Below are positions 17,384-34,548 of a DNA stretch of 64,000 bases, one piece after another. Position 1 is the stretch's first letter. Every line of letters starts with the position of its first letter. The position numbers were made by a program, and so were the translations under genes. The notes under the pieces were generated by a model. The model had not been told where the DNA came from. It did not search any database and saw only the letters and a program-made list of their open reading frames with translations. The DNA lies in assembly GCA_963785725.1 (NCBI GenBank), contig CAWAWS010000007.1, positions 768,001 through 832,000 of the forward strand. The letters are read 5' to 3'. The stretch is from an uncultured delta proteobacterium. GTDB taxonomy: Bacteria; Myxococcota_A; Polyangia; Palsa-1104.

Positions 17384-19576
17384 TTAGATCACCTTGCCGG
17401 CGTCGCGCAGGACGAGCTCGGCGGCGTGACGCAGGAGCTGCGTCGTGATCGGCGAGCCTTGCGCGGCCGCCAAATAGCCGGCGCGCATCACCGCGTTGCG
17501 AATGTAGCCGCCGGACATGGGCAGCCGTCGCGCCAGCTCGGTGAACGCGATCTCGTCGGTCGTCGCCGAATGGCCGCTGAGCATTTGCCGCCACAGCCGA
17601 TCGCGCTCGATCTCCTCCGGCATCGGGAAGTGCACGCGAAACGTCAATCGGCGCTGGAACGCCTGATCCATGACCGACTCGCGATTCGTCGTCAGGATCG
17701 AGACGCCGTTGAAGAGCTCGATCTGCGTCAACAGGAAGTTGGTCTGCATGTTGGCGTAGCGATCGGTCGAGTTCTGCACGTCGGTGCGCTTGCCGAAGAT
17801 AGCGTCCGCCTCGTCGAAGAGCAGCATGGCGTGGCCGGCCTCGGCGGCGCGAAAGACCTCGGCCAAGTTCTTCTCGGTCTCGCCCACCCACTTCGAGACC
17901 AGCGTCGCCGTATCGATTTGGTAGAGCGGCAGGCCGGCGGCGGCGGCGATGACGCCGGCGGCCATCGTCTTGCCGGTTCCGGGATCGCCGTAGAAGAGCG
18001 CGCTCACGCCGCGGCCGCGCACGAGGCGGCGGAAGTTCCACTCGTCGAGCACGGTGTCGCGCAGGCGGATCGTCGACTCCAGCTCACCCAACGTCTCGCG
18101 CGTCTCGTCGGAGATGATGAGATCGGCGTGCGTCGCGCGCGTCGACAAGCGGCGTCCGACCGTCGACAAGATGGGGCGGAATTCGGCGTCGATGGCGGCC
18201 ATGACGTCGGCGATCGTGATGACCGACGCGGACGCGGGCGACGCCGCGAACTGGCCGTCGCGTTCGGCGCGGGCGCGGGCGCGGATGCGCGCTTCGCCGG
18301 CGATGCGCGTGATGACGCCGCCCGTGATCGGGTAGGTGCGGGCGAGCAGCGCGTAGTCGATCGTCGTGTTGGGCGCGTCGGCGCCGGCGTCGAGACGATC
18401 GCGCCATAATTCGGCGCGCCGATCGCGCTCGGGCGCCGGCACGAGCACGGGCGACAGTCGGCGCGTCGTCGCCAGCGCCAGATCGAGGTGGGCCGGCTCG
18501 AGCGCGTCGCGAACGAGGATGACGCGGCCGGGGAAGCGCGACAGCAGCTCGCTGACGCCCGGCTGCCACGTGCGCTGCGCGCGCGGCGCGTCGGCGTCGA
18601 CCGGCGGCAGCGCGATCGCGATCCACGCCGCCGTCAGCCACGCCAGGCGCGCCGCGGCCAAGGCCTCGGTCGCGCCGAAGGCCGCCGGCGACGCGGTCAG
18701 GTCGAGCTCGACGAGCTTGCAGCCGCGCTCGCCGGCCAGCGCGCGCACGAGCAGCCGCTTGCCGGCGCCGGCCGGACCTTCGAGCAGCGGCAGCGCGTGC
18801 GGATCGTCGATCAGCGCGGCGACGTGGGGCCACAGCTCGTCGGGCAAGAACGTCCGCTCGCGCGGCAGCCGCTCGGGCCGCTCGACGAGGAGGCCGCGCA
18901 GCGCCGGCTCCTGCAGCTCCTGGCCGAGCACGTGCGCGACGACGGCGGGCGGCACCGACAGCGTCGTCGCCATCGTGCAGCCTTGCGCGGCGCCGCCTTC
19001 GTTGGTGAGCGCGAGCAGGCCCAAGTCGGCGAGCGTGGAGCCGGGCGCGAGCGCGCGCCGGACGGCATCGGCGCCCGGATCGGTCGGCGACAAGATGCGC
19101 GCGGCCGTGGCCACGTCGAGCGAGCGACCACGCGCCGAGGCGCCGCCGCGCAGAAATTGGAACAGCCGGCCAAAGCCGTCGTCGATCTCGGGCGCGAGCG
19201 CGAGCAGGAACAGGTCGAACGCCAGCGGCGACAGCTCGGCGCGCTCGGCCAATTCATAGAGCGGCAACGGGATGTGCGTGGCTGCGCGGTCGCGCTCGAT
19301 GCTGTGGCGGCGGGTGGCGATGCGGGCCGTCAGCTTGTCCGCTTCGCCGTCGACGAGCGCGGGCGCGCGATCGGCGGGATGCTCGAGGCGCTGCAGCTCG
19401 CGCTCGGCGCCGGCGGCGTCGAAGCGGCCGCTGGCGGTCGCCGCCGGCTGCAGCTCGCGATGACGCAGGCGACGCAGCGCGCGCCGCAAGACGAGCGCCA
19501 TCCGCGCGATCTCGGCGGCGACGGCGGCGGCGGCCGATTGATACGGTCGCGGCAAGGGCTCGGCGTGCGATTCCAC
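17384..19576 (-). CDS. AAA+ ATPase of the eCIS-associated (Afp15/Pvc15-like) type
   Basis: N-terminal LLALAPEID segment; degenerate first AAA module (GPAGAGK); second module GDPGTGKT, VSKWVGETEKNL, FDEADAIFGKRT, DRYAN. Confidence 0.85.
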   Translation of the reverse strand: MESHAEPLPRPYQSAAAAVAAEIARMALVLRRALRRLRHRELQPAATASGRFDAAGAERELQRLEHPADRAPALVDGEADKLTARIATRRHSIERDRAATHIPLPLYELAERAELSPLAFDLFLLALAPEIDDGFGRLFQFLRGGASARGRSLDVATAARILSPTDPGADAVRRALAPGSTLADLGLLALTNEGGAAQGCTMATTLSVPPAVVAHVLGQELQEPALRGLLVERPERLPRERTFLPDELWPHVAALIDDPHALPLLEGPAGAGKRLLVRALAGERGCKLVELDLTASPAAFGATEALAAARLAWLTAAWIAIALPPVDADAPRAQRTWQPGVSELLSRFPGRVILVRDALEPAHLDLALATTRRLSPVLVPAPERDRRAELWRDRLDAGADAPNTTIDYALLARTYPITGGVITRIAGEARIRARARAERDGQFAASPASASVITIADVMAAIDAEFRPILSTVGRRLSTRATHADLIISDETRETLGELESTIRLRDTVLDEWNFRRLVRGRGVSALFYGDPGTGKTMAAGVIAAAAGLPLYQIDTATLVSKWVGETEKNLAEVFRAAEAGHAMLLFDEADAIFGKRTDVQNSTDRYANMQTNFLLTQIELFNGVSILTTNRESVMDQAFQRRLTFRVHFPMPEEIERDRLWRQMLSGHSATTDEIAFTELARRLPMSGGYIRNAVMRAGYLAAAQGSPITTQLLRHAAELVLRDAGKVI

Positions 19577-28549: not shown

Positions 28550-29485
28550 ATGACCCAACGGATGAAGCCGTACACCGGCGGGAGCTTCGCGCTGGAGCTC
28601 GATCAGAAGCATTCGTCGGTCGGCTGGCTCACCAGCATCGACGGCGGGCACTTCAAGACGACGTCGGTCGACTCGCAGGTCGGTCGCGACGGCTACGTCA
28701 CGAAGTACGCCGGCAAGCCCAGCTACGACGACGTGACCATCGGCTGTGGTCTGGCCATGAGCGGATCGTTTTGGCATTGGGTGCGCGCCAGCCTCCACCG
28801 GAAGCCCGAGCGGCGCGACGGCGCGCTCGTCGCGTACGACTTCAACCAGCGCGAGCGCGGGCGGCGTACGTTTCGGCGCGCGCTCATCTCGGAGATCGCG
28901 TTTCCGGCGCTCGACGCGTCGTCGAAGGCGGCGGCGGGGCTCAACATCAAGTTCTCGCCCGAGCACATCGGCTACGAGGAGGGCGACGGCTCGACGTTGT
29001 CGGCGCAGAACAACAACAACGAGATGACGAAGTCGAAGCAGTGGCTGGCGTGCAACTTCAACTTCGCGCTCGAGCGCTTCAAAGGCGACGTCGCGCTGCG
29101 CAACTGCAAGGTCGAGGCGTTCACGATCAAGCAGAACATCATCGTCAACAACATCGGCGCCGAGCTCGAGCCGCGCAAAGAGCCGGGTCGGCTGGAGATG
29201 CCGCAGATCGTCGTCTCGTTTCCCGAGAGCATGGCCAAGGGCTGGTTCGAGTGGTTCCACAAGGCGAACCGCCTCGGCGAGCGCAGCGATCAGTACACGA
29301 CGGGGCAGATTCAGTATTTGGCGCCCGACAACCGGCAAGAGCTGATGCGCATCGACCTCGATGGCGTGTCGCTGATCTCGATCGAGATCGACAAGCTGGA
29401 GGCGCACCGCGAGTCGATCGCCAACGTGAAGTGCACGTTGAACGTCGAGAGCATGAAGATGGTCAACGGGCCCGGCATCATTTAG
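28550..29485 (+). CDS. Phage/eCIS tail-tube-like protein (T4 gp19 fold) with two tandem tube domains
   Basis: AAGGAG RBS. Domain 1: KYAGKPSYDDVTI...W...RRDGAL...FPALDASS. Domain 2: KEPGRLEMPQI...W...TGQIQYL...LEA. Confidence 0.72.
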   Translation: MTQRMKPYTGGSFALELDQKHSSVGWLTSIDGGHFKTTSVDSQVGRDGYVTKYAGKPSYDDVTIGCGLAMSGSFWHWVRASLHRKPERRDGALVAYDFNQRERGRRTFRRALISEIAFPALDASSKAAAGLNIKFSPEHIGYEEGDGSTLSAQNNNNEMTKSKQWLACNFNFALERFKGDVALRNCKVEAFTIKQNIIVNNIGAELEPRKEPGRLEMPQIVVSFPESMAKGWFEWFHKANRLGERSDQYTTGQIQYLAPDNRQELMRIDLDGVSLISIEIDKLEAHRESIANVKCTLNVESMKMVNGPGII

Positions 29486-29531: not shown

Positions 29532-29897
29532 TTAGCGGAGCAGAGCGCGGAGGGTGGCGCGGAGCGTGTGGGGGGTGGTCGGGACGTCGACGATGCCGAT
29601 GAGGGCGGCGGTCGGGAATGGCGGATCGGCGCGAACGGCGTCGTCGCCGCGGGTGGTGAGCGTGGTCGAGGTCGCGCCGATGAGGCGGTGGGCGATGAGG
29701 CGCTCGGGCGTGGCGATGACGACGACGTCGCCGAGGCGGGCGTCGGCGGCGACGGCGGGGCGGACGCGCAGGCGATCGCCGGGCGCGAAGAGCGGGCGCA
29801 TGCTGGTGCCGGTCGCGGGCAGGATGACGGGGCGGCCTTCGCGCAGGAGCGCGGCGGCAGCGAGCGAGCGCAGCGGCAGCTCTGACGCGCGCGACAT
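29532..29897 (-). CDS. Soluble S24/S26 family peptidase (Ser-His type), candidate RiPP leader peptidase
   Basis: GTSMRPLFAPGD (catalytic Ser box), LIAHRL, TTRGD; no TM segment; ATG directly follows the upstream TAA. Confidence 0.8.
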   Translation of the reverse strand: MSRASELPLRSLAAAALLREGRPVILPATGTSMRPLFAPGDRLRVRPAVAADARLGDVVVIATPERLIAHRLIGATSTTLTTRGDDAVRADPPFPTAALIGIVDVPTTPHTLRATLRALLR

Positions 29898-30812
29898 TTA
29901 GGGCGGACCGCCCAGGCGATCGAGCAGCAGGCGCGCGGCGGCAACGCCCTTGCGGTTGTGGAAGACGTAGCGCGGCACGTCTTGCACGAGGCGCGCGAGA
30001 TGATCGAGCACGCGCGCCGAGGCTTTGTCGTCCCACACGGGCGGGAAATGGCAGCGGTAGAGCAGCGCCAAGGCGCGCGCCGGCGTGATGGGCACGAGCT
30101 CGTCGCGGTCGGCCTGCTCGAGGAAGACGAGGCCGCGCAGGGGCGCCGACGAGTTGTGGGCAAAGCCGCCCTCGCCGGGCCAGGGCGTGCCGCCGAGCGC
30201 CCACTGACCGGGCGCGCCGCCGTTCTCGCCGTCGCTGCGCGCGCTGCCGTCGTCGTGGACGCGGTTGAGCGGGCGGACGACGGTGCGCTCGTCGGAGAGG
30301 ATGCGGGCGCCGAGCTCGGAGCAGGCGCGCGCCATCGTCGACTTGCCGGCGCCCGACGGGCCGGCGACGAGGAATGCGCCGTCACGGCCGACGATGCTGG
30401 CCGCGTGCGCGAGCGCGCCGCCGCCGATGCCGAGCGCGTGAATCGTCAGCAGCTGATCGGACGGATAGGCGAACGGCCGTGGCGCAGCGTCGTCGCGATA
30501 GTAGGCGTGGCCGTCGAGGCCGTCGCGCGGCAGCTCCACGCGCATGACCTCGAGCGGCGTCGCCGACGAGTCCTTGATGCAGAGCGTGAAGCGAGCGTCA
30601 TCGAGAAACGCGGCCCAGCTGTCGACTTCGATGACCGGCGTTCCGGTTGGCCGCAGCGGCGCTGGTGCGACGTGTGTTTGCAGGCGCAGCTCGATCGTCG
30701 GCGTTCCCTCGCCGCGCGCCGCGTCCTCCGCGGGCATATCGCCGGCGAGCGCAATCGCGACGCCGCCGACGACGTGGGTCAGCTCGCGCTCGGAGTCACG
30801 CACGCGGCGCAC
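29898..30812 (-). CDS. HPr-kinase-related P-loop kinase (ScmC/lasso-kinase-like)
   Basis: HAASI, Walker A GPSGAGKST, LSDER, GTPWPGE. Start may be the GTG at 30803. Confidence 0.8.
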   Translation of the reverse strand: MRRVRDSERELTHVVGGVAIALAGDMPAEDAARGEGTPTIELRLQTHVAPAPLRPTGTPVIEVDSWAAFLDDARFTLCIKDSSATPLEVMRVELPRDGLDGHAYYRDDAAPRPFAYPSDQLLTIHALGIGGGALAHAASIVGRDGAFLVAGPSGAGKSTMARACSELGARILSDERTVVRPLNRVHDDGSARSDGENGGAPGQWALGGTPWPGEGGFAHNSSAPLRGLVFLEQADRDELVPITPARALALLYRCHFPPVWDDKASARVLDHLARLVQDVPRYVFHNRKGVAAARLLLDRLGGPP

Positions 30813-30964
30813 AAATGGAAGCCGGTGCCGCCGCGGCCAGTACCAGCGCCACCGGCCGTCTTGCAGCCGGCGAGCAGGTTTTCATTGGCGCGCAGCGGAA
30901 TGTCTTCCACGGCCGGTGGCTCATAATCCTCGCGAACGATCTGACTATCCTGCTGATTGTCCAT
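30779..30964 (-). CDS. RiPP precursor peptide (61 aa)
   Basis: GAGGAG just upstream of the ATG. Acidic leader with YEPPAV; core CKTAGGAGTGRGGTGFHLCAACVTPSAS (3 Cys, C-terminal Ser). Overlaps both the rSAM and kinase genes. Confidence 0.75.
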   Translation of the reverse strand: MDNQQDSQIVREDYEPPAVEDIPLRANENLLAGCKTAGGAGTGRGGTGFHLCAACVTPSAS

Positions 30965-32096
30965 GTTCTCCTCGCAGTCGCAGCTTCACCAGCCCGTTGG
31001 GCATGGGACGGTTCTCGCCGAACATATCGGCATTGCGCGCATCGGTGACCGCGCACATGTACGGATTGCCGCCGTCGGCAGCCAAGCCTTCGAGCTCGGC
31101 CATTCCCGTGCAGTTGGAGCAGGCGACGCCGGTCGTGCACGTGCCGCAGCCGCTCATATCGTCGCGGCGCGTGTCGAGCACTTTGGCAAAGGGCGCGCCG
31201 AAGCCCGCGGCGAAGCCGTCGCGCAGGACGTCCCAGCCGGGCTTGCGCGACAGCTCGCACACGTGCAGCTTGCCGTAGGGATCGATGAGATAGGTCGCGG
31301 CCCCGGCGCCGCACTGATAGCGCTTGTCGCTCGGCGGCGGCGTGCCCAGTCGCGGCGCGCAGAAGTCGGCCAGCTCGTGCTTTCGCTTGCCGTCACCGCC
31401 TTCGACCGCGGCCACTTCGTCCGGCGACAGGCGCTGCTCGAGCGGCTTTCGTCCGCCGTCGATGCGCGGGCTCAAGACGGCGTCGAAGCGGAAGCGCAGC
31501 CCTTCGTCCTCGGCGAAGCGACGAATGTCGTGCACTTCGTCGCGCGTCGCCTTCATGGCGATCGCCTTGAGCGTGACGGAGACGCCCGCGGCGCGCAGTC
31601 GGCTCAAGCCGGTCTTGAAGCGATCGTATTGGGCGCCCGCGTCGGTGACTTTGTCGTAGGTCTCGGGCTTGAACCCATACTGCGTCACCTCGACCATCCG
31701 CGGCGGGCGCGTGCGCCACATCTCGAGGTGCCGCTCGGTGATGAGCACGGCGTTCGTGTAGACGTTGAGGACGATGCCCTTGTCGTGCGCGTACGAATAG
31801 ATGTCGCAGAAGTCGGGACGCAAGAGCGGCTCGCCGCCGGTCAGCGTCAGCCACAGCGTGCCGGCCTCGGCGATCTGATCGATCACGGCGAACCACTCGG
31901 TCGTCGTGAGCTCGCGTCGCTGCGCCGGGCGATCGTTGGCCGGCAGGTTCACGTAGCAGTGAATGCAGGCGAGATTGCAGCGATGGGTCAGCTCCAATCC
32001 GCCCGAGATCGGAATGCGGGTAGCATAGGCCCGCGCGTGCAGCTCGGCGGAGCCTCGGCCGTGCAGAATCGGCGTCGCGGCGACGAGCTCGCTCAT
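30945..32096 (-). CDS. Radical SAM/SPASM domain peptide maturase
   Basis: CNLACIHC (CX3CX2C), TGGEPL, YTNA; SPASM motifs CGAG...GKLHVC, CGTCTTGVACSNC and the final PYMC. Confidence 0.92.
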   Translation of the reverse strand: MSELVAATPILHGRGSAELHARAYATRIPISGGLELTHRCNLACIHCYVNLPANDRPAQRRELTTTEWFAVIDQIAEAGTLWLTLTGGEPLLRPDFCDIYSYAHDKGIVLNVYTNAVLITERHLEMWRTRPPRMVEVTQYGFKPETYDKVTDAGAQYDRFKTGLSRLRAAGVSVTLKAIAMKATRDEVHDIRRFAEDEGLRFRFDAVLSPRIDGGRKPLEQRLSPDEVAAVEGGDGKRKHELADFCAPRLGTPPPSDKRYQCGAGAATYLIDPYGKLHVCELSRKPGWDVLRDGFAAGFGAPFAKVLDTRRDDMSGCGTCTTGVACSNCTGMAELEGLAADGGNPYMCAVTDARNADMFGENRPMPNGLVKLRLRGEHGQSAG

Positions 32097-32377
32097 GACG
32101 CGAGCAGCCCGCGGCGCGAGAGCTCGCCGAGGAAGTTGTTCACGTCGCTCGTGACGTCGCGCTCGGTCGGCACTTTGTACTTCTCACGAACCAGCGCGCA
32201 CAGCGTGCCCGGATCGTGCTTGCCGTCGAGGTGCTGCCACAGGAAAGCGCCGACGCGCGACAGCAAGTAGACGTTGTCGAATTCGGCGATGCCCTGACGA
32301 GTTGGGACCAGCACGGTCTCGCCTCCGACATGGCGCGCGATGACGCCCGGGGCCGGTGACGGTGCGGATTGACTCAT
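32093..32377 (-). CDS. PqqD family RiPP recognition element (RRE)
   Basis: IARHVGGETVLVP, YLLSRVGAFLWQHLDG, EKYKV...DVNNFLGELSRRGLL; ATGA overlap with the rSAM gene. Confidence 0.88.
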   Translation of the reverse strand: MSQSAPSPAPGVIARHVGGETVLVPTRQGIAEFDNVYLLSRVGAFLWQHLDGKHDPGTLCALVREKYKVPTERDVTSDVNNFLGELSRRGLLAS

Positions 32378-32459
32378 GATGCTTGGTTGTAGCATGCGCC
32401 GACAACATTCATCAAGGCGACGCGATGCGGCGTGCGGCGACGAAGGCTGGCGAGCCTGC

Positions 32460-32966
32460 TCAGGGCTGGCCGGCGTCGAGCCACTTGCTGATGCGCAAGC
32501 GGTCTTCGCACGTCGGGAACGGCATGTTGATCGGCATCTCGTCGTTGGCGCCGACCTCGGTGCGAATCATCGAGCCGTACATCTTCACGGCCGCTTGCTG
32601 ATCCCAGTTGTAGCCGGCGGGCGCGCCGTTGCGCGCCGTGTCGCCCACCAGCGTCGACGAGTGGCAGCGCGTGCACCACTGCGCGAAGAACGGCTTCGCG
32701 TAGGTCGCCCACGTGTCGCCGCCGATGTTGTCGCCCGGCGCCGCGACGGGCGAGGTGAGCGCCGCGCAGCCGTTGGCGAGCACCATCGTCATGTCGCCGC
32801 TCGCGGCCGTGCCGCCACCGCCGGCCGTGCCGCCGCCGCCTGCGGTGCCGCCGCCGCCGCCACCGGCTACGCCGCCGCCGCCCGCTGCGCCGTCTTTTTC
32901 CGACGAGCCGCCGCTGCCGCCACAACCCGCGAGTAACAGAAGAGCGATAGGGATAATCTTATGCAT
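32460..32966 (-). CDS. Lipoprotein with a single c-type heme motif
   Basis: Lipobox LAGC; Gly-rich linker; WCTRCH (CxxCH); distal MP motifs. Confidence 0.7.
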   Translation of the reverse strand: MHKIIPIALLLLAGCGGSGGSSEKDGAAGGGGVAGGGGGGTAGGGGTAGGGGTAASGDMTMVLANGCAALTSPVAAPGDNIGGDTWATYAKPFFAQWCTRCHSSTLVGDTARNGAPAGYNWDQQAAVKMYGSMIRTEVGANDEMPINMPFPTCEDRLRISKWLDAGQP

Positions 32967-33025
32967 GGTGATTTTCATTCTACATGTGATGGGCGAATGC
33001 CGGTAAATGTTACGTAAGGATAAAG

Positions 33026-33655
33026 ATGACTGCGCTCAACGTTCGCGGATGCTTAATCTTATTTGTCATTGGCGCGGGTGGGTGCGGTGACGACACGACT
33101 GCCAAGCCCGATATGGCAGTCCCGAATATCGATATGTCCATTACGGCGTCGGCAGGCTGCGCGCTTTATTGCGACACGATTACCAAGGCCTGCTCCGGCG
33201 GGAATGACGCCGGATCCTTCGCGCAATTTACATATCCGGATGAAACGAGCTGTGTCGCGTATTGCAATGGAAATGGCGATTGGCCGGCGGGAACGACTGG
33301 TGCTTCGACTGGCAATACATTGGCCTGTCGCGGGACGCATGCCGAAGCAGCGTTGACGAATCCGGCAACTGAGTGTGCCAATGCCGGACCATCGGGAAAC
33401 AATACGTGCGGAACTTGGTGCGAGGATTTTTGCTATCTAATGGAGAAGAACTGCACCGGCAGTAATGCCATTTACGACGCGCCGACGTGCCTGCAAAAGT
33501 GCGCGACGATGCCGGCGACGGGAACGGCCGGCGACGTCAGCGGCGACACGGTGCAGTGCCGCATTTACCATATGGGCGTGGCCTTCGACGATCCCGTCAC
33601 GCATTGTCCGCACGGCCGCACGCTCGCCGACAATCCCGACGGGCCGTGCATGTAG
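33026..33655 (+). CDS. Cys-rich lipoprotein with two internal repeats of about 80 aa
   Basis: AAGGA RBS; lipobox-like GGC; repeats CxxYC...GNTLACRGTH and CEDFC...GDTVQCRIYH. Confidence 0.7.
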   Translation: MTALNVRGCLILFVIGAGGCGDDTTAKPDMAVPNIDMSITASAGCALYCDTITKACSGGNDAGSFAQFTYPDETSCVAYCNGNGDWPAGTTGASTGNTLACRGTHAEAALTNPATECANAGPSGNNTCGTWCEDFCYLMEKNCTGSNAIYDAPTCLQKCATMPATGTAGDVSGDTVQCRIYHMGVAFDDPVTHCPHGRTLADNPDGPCM

Positions 33656-34050: not shown

Positions 34051-34548
34051 TCAGCGACGAGGGGCAGGTCCGCTCGGGTTGCCGAGCCGCGTGGTGTCGT
34101 AGAGCAGCGTCACGAGCAGCGTGAAGAAGCGGCGCGCCGTGCCGTGATCGGGCTTGAGCGCGCCCAACAAAGAGACCACGGTCTCACCGGCTTCGTCGTG
34201 CGTGATGCGCTTGGCGATGTCGAGCGCCTCCAGCCGCGGCGAGTTGGCCGAGACGCCGAGCTTGGCCATCTCGCCGATCGTCTCCATATATTCGGCCATG
34301 AGCGGGCGCAAGGCCGACAGCGGCAGCTCTTGCTGGGCCGTCAGGTGGCCGTCCGCGCCGCGCACTTCGACGACTACTCGCGTTGGCGCCAAGGTGACGG
34401 TCGCGCGCGCTTCACCGTCGGGCAGCACGAAGCGACCCTCTTGCAGGATCTCGTTGATCGCCAGCCGCCACTCGTGTCTGCGCACGGTCGTGCCCGCAGA
34501 CCAAGTCGCATCGTCGATTAGAAGCTCCTTCAGGCGCCCCGCCGGCAT
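34051..34548 (-). CDS. UPF0262 family protein
   Basis: HEWRLAINEIL, LEALDIAKRITHDEAG, DHGTARRFFTL. Confidence 0.78.
   Translation of the reverse strand: MPAGRLKELLIDDATWSAGTTVRRHEWRLAINEILQEGRFVLPDGEARATVTLAPTRVVVEVRGADGHLTAQQELPLSALRPLMAEYMETIGEMAKLGVSANSPRLEALDIAKRITHDEAGETVVSLLGALKPDHGTARRFFTLLVTLLYDTTRLGNPSGPAPRR

Follow-up and report, generated by a model that had tools for sequence, protein, structure and literature searches.

The window (the whole 64,000-nucleotide stretch of DNA that was analysed) contains five genes that lie head to tail on the minus strand within 2.9 kb. They encode, in this order, a discrete RiPP recognition element (RRE), a radical SAM (rSAM) enzyme with SPASM-type cysteines, a short peptide, an HprK-like kinase and an S26 peptidase (Table 1). 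The genes are tightly packed: the RRE stop and the rSAM start overlap in the sequence ATGA, the peptide ORF shares 20 nt with the end of the rSAM gene and 34 nt with the kinase gene read from its longest start, and the kinase stop directly adjoins the ATG of the peptidase gene. A promoter and terminator scan gave no signal above shuffles, and none of the operon genes scored above the cut-off of a named NCBIfam model among the best matches listed. A UPF0262 gene lies just upstream (34051-34548), as it does in four related loci, which suggests that the operon was inherited at a fixed site; the other neighbours vary from relative to relative.

Table 1. Features of the operon, in window coordinates
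Feature	Position	Strand	Remarks
RRE, PqqD-type discrete RiPP recognition element	32093..32395	-	100 aa; 94 aa from second ATG at 32377
Radical SAM enzyme, SPASM-type auxiliary cluster cysteines	30945..32096	-	383 aa; PF04055
Precursor peptide	30779..30964	-	61 aa; leader 1-33, YxxP at 14-17, predicted core Cys34-Ser61
GAGGAG, Shine-Dalgarno-like site of precursor	30968..30973	-	inside rSAM 3' end
HprK/PEPCK-fold kinase	29898..30812	-	304 aa; start may be later GTG
Sec11/SipW-type S26 peptidase, without N-terminal membrane anchor	29532..29897	-	121 aa; predicted leader peptidase

Translation bore out the initial annotation's description of the peptide ORF, including its sequence, ATG start and overlap with both neighbours. 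Cysteines are at positions 34, 52 and 55; from Cys34 on there are six Ser or Thr residues (36, 42, 47, 57, 59 and 61) and no Asp or Glu. The YxxPxV leader motif comprises Tyr14, Pro17 and Val19, and 3 nt separate the GAGGAG from the ATG. Taken by itself, a relaxed form of the motif is weak evidence, since 14 of the 107,847 stop-bounded segments of the genome match it. In a profile search, 11 of 14 relatives' loci had a homologous peptide behind the rSAM gene; of the remaining three, two reach a contig edge inside the rSAM gene, and in the third, L015, the YxxP/Cys peptide is divergent and was detected by motif pattern and not by the family profile. The block from Tyr14 to Lys35 overlaps neither neighbour; here, comparison of seven loci gave mismatch rates of 0.25, 0.11 and 0.43 for codon positions 1, 2 and 3. 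By eye, a purine-rich site like GAGGAG precedes the start in all seven loci of the rSAM branch described below. Thus, although the motif would not suffice, conservation and codon-position constraint outside the overlaps confirm the 61-aa ORF as a real, conserved gene. That it is a chance product of two overlapping genes, as its overlaps and its GC3 of 0.71 (flanking genes, 0.80-0.93) might suggest, has next to no prospect of being right and is already refuted by conservation, given 1894 homologous clusters, free-standing copies in many loci and codon constraint in the non-overlapping part. The exact protein is present in a predicted-protein collection (P0007) and several homologues are NCBI hypothetical proteins, so gene callers do not miss the ORF as a rule, and the warning that they may drop it did not hold. 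No second copy of the peptide was found in the host genome (G000). The LLAGC sequence resembles a lipobox; we rejected a lipoprotein reading because the residues before it are charged and lack a hydrophobic stretch.

The 1894 clusters (at 90% identity) were found among 2077 candidates with a profile built from 12 peptide sequences. The window peptide has no NCBIfam or Pfam match, no Pfam domain occurs in the 120 listed of the 1894 clusters, and Pfam searches with 12 homologues gave no meaningful match (0/12; one hit at E 0.1 is a chance match). The nearest ESM Atlas clusters are unnamed, and the closest named homologues among the matches listed are labelled Myxococcales or Polyangia. Orthologues of the rSAM enzyme occur in 14 of 60 relatives and, in a sample of 400 genomes of the phylum, in 4. 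The 79 named loci that were selected through the rSAM alone come from Acidobacteriota, Nitrospirota, Chloroflexota, Omnitrophota, Myxococcota and other phyla, and 62 of these have the peptide. The family is large and, as the initial annotation suggested, uncharacterised, but it is not confined to deltaproteobacteria. Among the 62 peptide-bearing loci, many of which are cut by contig ends, the RRE is present in 61, the kinase likewise in 61 and the S26 peptidase in 51; a large C25 protease is found in 28, a PF14907 nucleotidyltransferase in 17 and an ABC-type match in 14. A quick tree of 73 rSAMs, drawn from loci in which rSAM and peptide were both matched, placed the window enzyme in a long, fully supported branch of seven rows, all from the host's family, with CxxC in five of the seven peptides. 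Two more genomes have truncated loci with an rSAM 55-59% identical to that of the window, giving nine branch genomes in all.

Every one of the 120 listed homologues (of 1894) has exactly three core cysteines and a Cys-Lys pair at a fixed 20 residues after the leader Tyr; the second and third cysteines vary in spacing and number. CxxC spacing occurs in 27 of the 120, the window peptide included, and an acidic core residue in only 20. The peptide ends in Ser in 119 of the 120, a count that is partly circular. A second set comprised 96 rSAM-chosen loci searched with a leader-only profile, which was used to limit circularity, yet was partly seeded from first-pass matches; 76 loci gave a peptide and 20 gave none. 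Exactly three core cysteines were present in 60 of the 76 and fewer than three in 7, and the last residue was Ser in 68, Thr in 4 and another residue in 4, compared with 11% Ser elsewhere in the cores. Loci chosen by the kinase, some of which duplicate earlier loci, gave a peptide in 26 of 30 cases, with a final Ser in 25 and Thr in 1. In 30 of 60 loci, over 60 nt lie between the peptide stop and the start of the kinase match, so the terminal Ser is not forced by gene overlap. Neither this residue nor the HprK-like kinase or the S26 enzyme predicted to remove the leader was picked up in the initial annotation.

Judged by sequence, the five coupled genes travel together and their catalytic residues are intact. 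We propose, with slightly less than even confidence, that the ORF encodes the precursor of an uncharacterised RRE-dependent RiPP made in a four-step pathway; all of the enzymatic steps are ones that we infer, from sequence and by analogy. The first would be recognition of the leader, followed in turn by the kinase step, the rSAM step and, last, leader removal. The RRE scores above the cut-off of PF05402 (E 1.4e-13), and its best solved match is LppB (9x8z, E 0.0073). Asp78 (numbered in the 94-aa form) aligns with the Tyr-binding D70 of LppB, at least 90% of 38 homologues retain it, and Tyr67 aligns with the LppB pocket residue Tyr60. The YxxP motif and the LppB match, with these two residues aligned, suggest that the RRE very probably binds the Tyr14-x-x-Pro17 leader. 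This agrees with the initial proposal of a conserved RiPP precursor with a lasso-type YxxP leader for a discrete RRE.

Removal of the leader is best considered alongside LppS, which Popov et al. (Nat Commun 2026; PMC13381572) describe as a SipW homologue with a Ser/His/Asp triad that, assisted by the RRE, cleaves off a YxxP leader and depends on a hydrophobic -3 residue. The S26 enzyme of the window has the catalytic residues Ser32, His70 and Asp85/Asp91, with Ser32, His70 and Asp85 invariant in 38 homologues. It matches TIGR02228 below the cut-off (E 2e-8), and its best solved match is SEC11C (E 7e-12). By analogy with LppS, it would be expected, with good probability, to remove the leader with the help of the RRE. 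Since LppS needs a hydrophobic -3 residue and a cut before Cys34 places the invariant Leu31 there, we lean towards this register. Leu stands three residues before Cys34 in all 120 listed homologues (of 1894) and in 53 of the 76 diverse loci. Cleavage near LLAG/C, as first annotated, thus stands as the likelier of two registers, with a cut before Gly33 as the alternative. Against the cut before Cys34, the preceding residue is often Asn, His or Phe in the 76 rSAM-chosen loci, and these are unusual at the P1 position of signal peptidases. The residue before a Gly33-type cut is Gly or Ala in 120 of 120 listed homologues and, counting Ser, in 45 of the 76 diverse loci; judged by the small-residue rule, the earlier cut is the better fit for the close homologues, but it loses this advantage across the diverse loci. 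A nickel-hook reading, in which the cut falls one residue earlier in the manner of SodX/SodN, was prompted by a weak TIGR02754 match; it is kept as a minority register.

The rSAM step is the weakest part of the proposed mechanism. The enzyme falls below the cut-off of 25 NCBIfam models (best matches listed), the best being the mycofactocin maturase (92 of 265 bits). C40, C44 and C47 and seven C-terminal cysteines are invariant in 14 homologues, and an extra Cys246 is present in six of the seven branch members. The closest solved structures, the sactisynthase SkfB (E 1e-28) and PqqE (E 8e-27), which forms C-C bonds, tie. We give about an even chance to formation of a Cys-to-carbon thioether, which would most likely involve Cys34, the sole cysteine in fixed register with the leader; Cys52 and Cys55 may be paired or also bridged. 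No conserved acceptor residue was found beside the second or third cysteine in the 120 listed homologues (of 1894). With SkfB and PqqE tied, sequence here does not tell thioether formers from C-C formers; as, in addition, only Cys34 is in register, the suggestion that all three cysteines serve as thioether donors was not established.

The same pathway could instead run without thioethers, which we regard as unlikely but worth serious consideration. The rSAM enzyme would then perform anSME-, MftC- or PqqE-like chemistry, such as oxidation of Cys34 or decarboxylation or cross-linking at the C-terminal end, with the cysteines forming a disulfide or binding metal. Consistent with this idea, its best NCBIfam scores are to mycofactocin, heme d1/heme b and PqqE maturases, and PqqE is level with SkfB among the solved structures. 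Thioether formers are thought to need an open cluster site, which the eighth cysteine of this branch could fill, and the CxxC spacing of the window peptide and other listed homologues also fits. However, a Cys-rich core beside a SPASM enzyme is the usual sign of sacti- or ranthipeptides, and three cysteines are kept in 60 of the 76 diverse cores found beside the SPASM enzyme; moreover, a cofactor-dependent oxidoreductase family was not found among the recurrent neighbours.

For the kinase, the motif residues His136, Walker A Lys157, Asp174 and Glu175 are conserved, and the matches to ScmC and HprK-related models are weak and below cut-off. The acidic pair of the motif reads Asp-Asp in 52 of 90 kinase matches and Asp-Glu in 19, and 14 were not parsed. 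A His-Lys-Asp-Asp motif is reported, in a review (PMC9266682), for lasso kinases that phosphorylate a C-terminal Ser. Because the terminal Ser is near-invariant and the motif is of this type, Ser61 is the likeliest target, and we consider it fairly probable that the kinase would phosphorylate this residue, perhaps repeatedly, as PadeK does in paeninodin. Several observations stand against this assignment. The kinase is related only distantly to those of lasso-type loci (profile match probability 98.8, 18% identity, for an alignment of seven kinases, only three of which were verified to have a lasso cyclase or B2 gene alongside); with scores of 26-56 bits on the family profile, lasso-locus kinases are too distant for the target to be assigned by kinship, an approach that we tried and rejected. 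Four kinase-bearing loci lack a terminal hydroxyl, their peptides ending in Gly, Pro, His or Val, and a Butyrivibrio kinase-RRE-S26 cluster without an rSAM in 16 kb has a peptide that ends in Trp. Finally, LppK phosphorylates Ser3 of its core (PMC13381572).

This last precedent raises the possibility, in our view a slim one, that the phosphate is placed on Thr36 or another internal Ser or Thr, and that Ser61 is conserved for some other reason, e.g. rSAM chemistry or conjugation. With a cut before Cys34, Thr36 becomes core position 3, where 91 of the 120 listed homologues (of 1894) have Thr or Ser, and the RRE and peptidase both resemble their LPP counterparts. On the other hand, position 3 is Gln, Asn, Gly, Ile or another residue in 29 of the 120, against terminal Ser in 119, and the S3T variant of LppA was not phosphorylated (PMC13381572). 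If Ser61 is the target and the remaining steps proceed as proposed, the pathway would yield a cross-linked phosphopeptide of roughly 28 residues, made in this branch without an adjacent C25 protease, nucleotidyltransferase or exporter.

The C25 protease bears on a further reading, which we judge more doubtful still: that the peptide serves a giant secreted protease as its dedicated partner, be it as substrate, subunit or inhibitor, and that this branch is a leftover in which the protease has been lost. C25 lies inside the examined stretch in 28 of the 62 peptide-bearing loci and in 21 of the 35 full-length ones, and its His/Cys dyad looks intact. Furthermore, in nine loci (L028, L030, L035, L046, L047, L051, L058, L063 and L067) one reading frame joins the S26 peptidase to a signal-peptide-like stretch and a DUF11/C25 protein of 2100-2900 aa, which makes the leader peptidase the N-terminus of a secreted protease. 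In contrast, a C25 query matched none of the nine branch genomes (53-99% complete, related genomes), whereas the same query matched the three controls G005, G019 and G050 (the one family member with the other rSAM type and two further genomes). A local C25 profile found nothing in G000, and no nucleotidyltransferase, ABC or C25 gene lies within ~9 kb in the three branch genomes that were read more widely. Despite this, the branch keeps its catalytic residues and codon-level constraint. With no C25 match in the nine genomes of this branch, the giant protease looks dispensable, at least in some lineages.

The closest described system is LPP (LppA/K/B/S/D/N, from Bacillota; Popov 2026, PMC13381572), which, as described there, shares with the window system a YxxP leader, a stand-alone RRE, a kinase resembling HprK, a SipW-type peptidase with a Ser-His-Asp triad (in the window enzyme a predicted activity) and the lack of a macrolactam cyclase. 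The window operon adds an rSAM/SPASM enzyme, which is not part of the LPP core gene set given in that paper; the word "radical" occurs 0 times in its main text, and Radical_SAM and Peptidase_C25 appear only as columns of a supplementary domain matrix. The LPP leader consensus is given as YxxPxVLxHQxIxFETxxS, with Ser at core position 3 (PMC13381572), whereas the leader of the window family is longer and differs after YxxP, position 3 here is Thr, and the core is distinguished by three cysteines and a terminal Ser. The LPP core cluster also includes a nucleotidyltransferase and an MsbA-like exporter, both of which are absent from the window operon and its neighbours; PF14907 nucleotidyltransferases do occur in other loci of the family, as noted above, and the two PF14907 matches in G000 are both on other contigs.

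The [Y/W]xxPx-hydrophobic leader motif and the discrete RRE are shared with lasso peptides. Those of the paeninodin type (PadeK, ThcoK, SyanK) are described as having, in addition to a YxxP/WxxP leader and a discrete RRE, a conserved C-terminal Ser and a kinase with the motif His-Lys-Asp-Asp. The window operon differs in having an rSAM and an S26 peptidase, and in lacking a lasso cyclase, a B2 peptidase, a core Asp or Glu and the Thr at -2. Thus, as first annotated, the product would not be a lasso peptide. Four NF033535-like genes, all below cut-off, lie elsewhere in G000, the nearest ~120 kb away on the same contig; the B2 model NF033537 had no match in G000 (88% complete), and as a control matched 1 of 14 genomes. 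HprK-related, PqqD-like and rSAM/SPASM parts are also found in the SynChlorMet cassette (ScmC, TIGR04249; ScmD, TIGR04248; ScmE, TIGR04250; ScmF, TIGR04251). ScmC and ScmD are the best NCBIfam matches of the kinase and RRE, but Scm model scores are far below cut-off (32/125, 30/100 and 62/400 bits), and the window operon has one rSAM where SynChlorMet has two. A literature search on the SynChlorMet name gave no match. Sactipeptides and ranthipeptides (SkfB, CteB) likewise combine a Cys-containing precursor with an RRE and a SPASM/twitch-type rSAM, and SkfB is the top solved match; here, however, the RRE is a separate gene and a kinase and S26 peptidase are added. A SPASM/twitch rSAM and a Cys-rich precursor are present, and a thioether would be plausible only.

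By analogy, then, the window system resembles an LPP or paeninodin tailoring module to which an rSAM has been added. RRE-Finder places about 300 lasso-type RREs with rSAMs but gives them no assignment. The parts have had precedent since 2026, and we found the combination undescribed in the literature searched: a peptide system with rSAM, kinase and S26 peptidase was not described in our searches, whose scope stopped short of subscription journals and bioRxiv supplements, nor in the portions consulted of PMC10288494, PMC7470986 and PMC13692751.

Sequence comparison thus points to a widespread, uncharacterised peptide pathway, present here in a five-gene form. The family is large and spans many mostly uncultured phyla, and it joins the leader-peptidase and kinase logic of the LPP type, described in 2026, to an rSAM. 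Its characterisation should bring to light an rSAM reaction, or else a cross-linked phosphopeptide, that is new. To this the window contributes a distinct rSAM branch and a minimal operon, the smallest unit for such tests, in which C25 looks unnecessary. We consider it improbable that the family constitutes a novel class of RiPPs in which either end of the product is modified, by the rSAM at the N-terminal Cys-Lys that cleavage exposes and by (poly)phosphate on the C-terminal Ser. If so, the phospho-Ser would be a handle for nucleotidyl activation or attachment in most lineages, where the peptide would act together with a C25 surface protease of PorU/gingipain-like type, to whose gene that of the leader peptidase is even fused; the five-gene branch would show that the peptide also has its own role inside the cell, e.g. 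as a metal-binding or signalling peptide.

Several variants of the locus were seen. Five loci (L044, L059, L077, L083 and L087) have rSAM-kinase fusions together with several rSAMs and WxxP-type leaders, and two of these, L083 and L087, have two precursors each. Another four (L015, L095, L097 and L172) have the gene order kinase, RRE, rSAM and a shorter leader ending in Cys-Gly-Lys or similar, with a Ser-terminated peptide. Kinase, PqqD and S24/S26 genes occur without a nearby rSAM match in a Prevotella record (L102:5614-7258) and on the Butyrivibrio plasmid NZ_CP146964.1 (L100:7608-9631; no rSAM match in 16 kb). The 57-aa Butyrivibrio peptide has a YxxP leader, is Cys-rich, has the C-terminal Trp mentioned above and lies beside polysaccharide genes.

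Other genes near the operon and in its genome were also recorded. Just upstream of the RRE gene is a lipoprotein-like gene (32460-32978, minus strand) that combines a Gly-rich linker with a c-type cytochrome motif (CxxCH), divergent from a Cys-rich, lipoprotein-like gene without a family match (33026-33655, plus strand); the place of these two genes is not conserved in relatives. Convergent with the operon, 28550-29485 (plus strand) encodes a 311-aa protein with two T4 gp19-like tail-tube stretches (PF06841) and a weak match to contractile injection system tube models; no other tail genes were found among the neighbours scanned. About 9 kb from this tube gene, 17384-19576 (minus strand) encodes a 730-aa AAA ATPase that carries a PF22977 winged-helix domain at its N-terminus and which we presume to be akin to the ATPases of contractile injection systems. 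Elsewhere in G000, a second cluster (L177; C3:477000-495000) encodes several PqqD-domain proteins, two GlcNAc-type glycosyltransferases, a 2OG-Fe(II) oxygenase and a protein with a weak O-fucosyltransferase match, and is possibly a glycosylated-peptide pathway.
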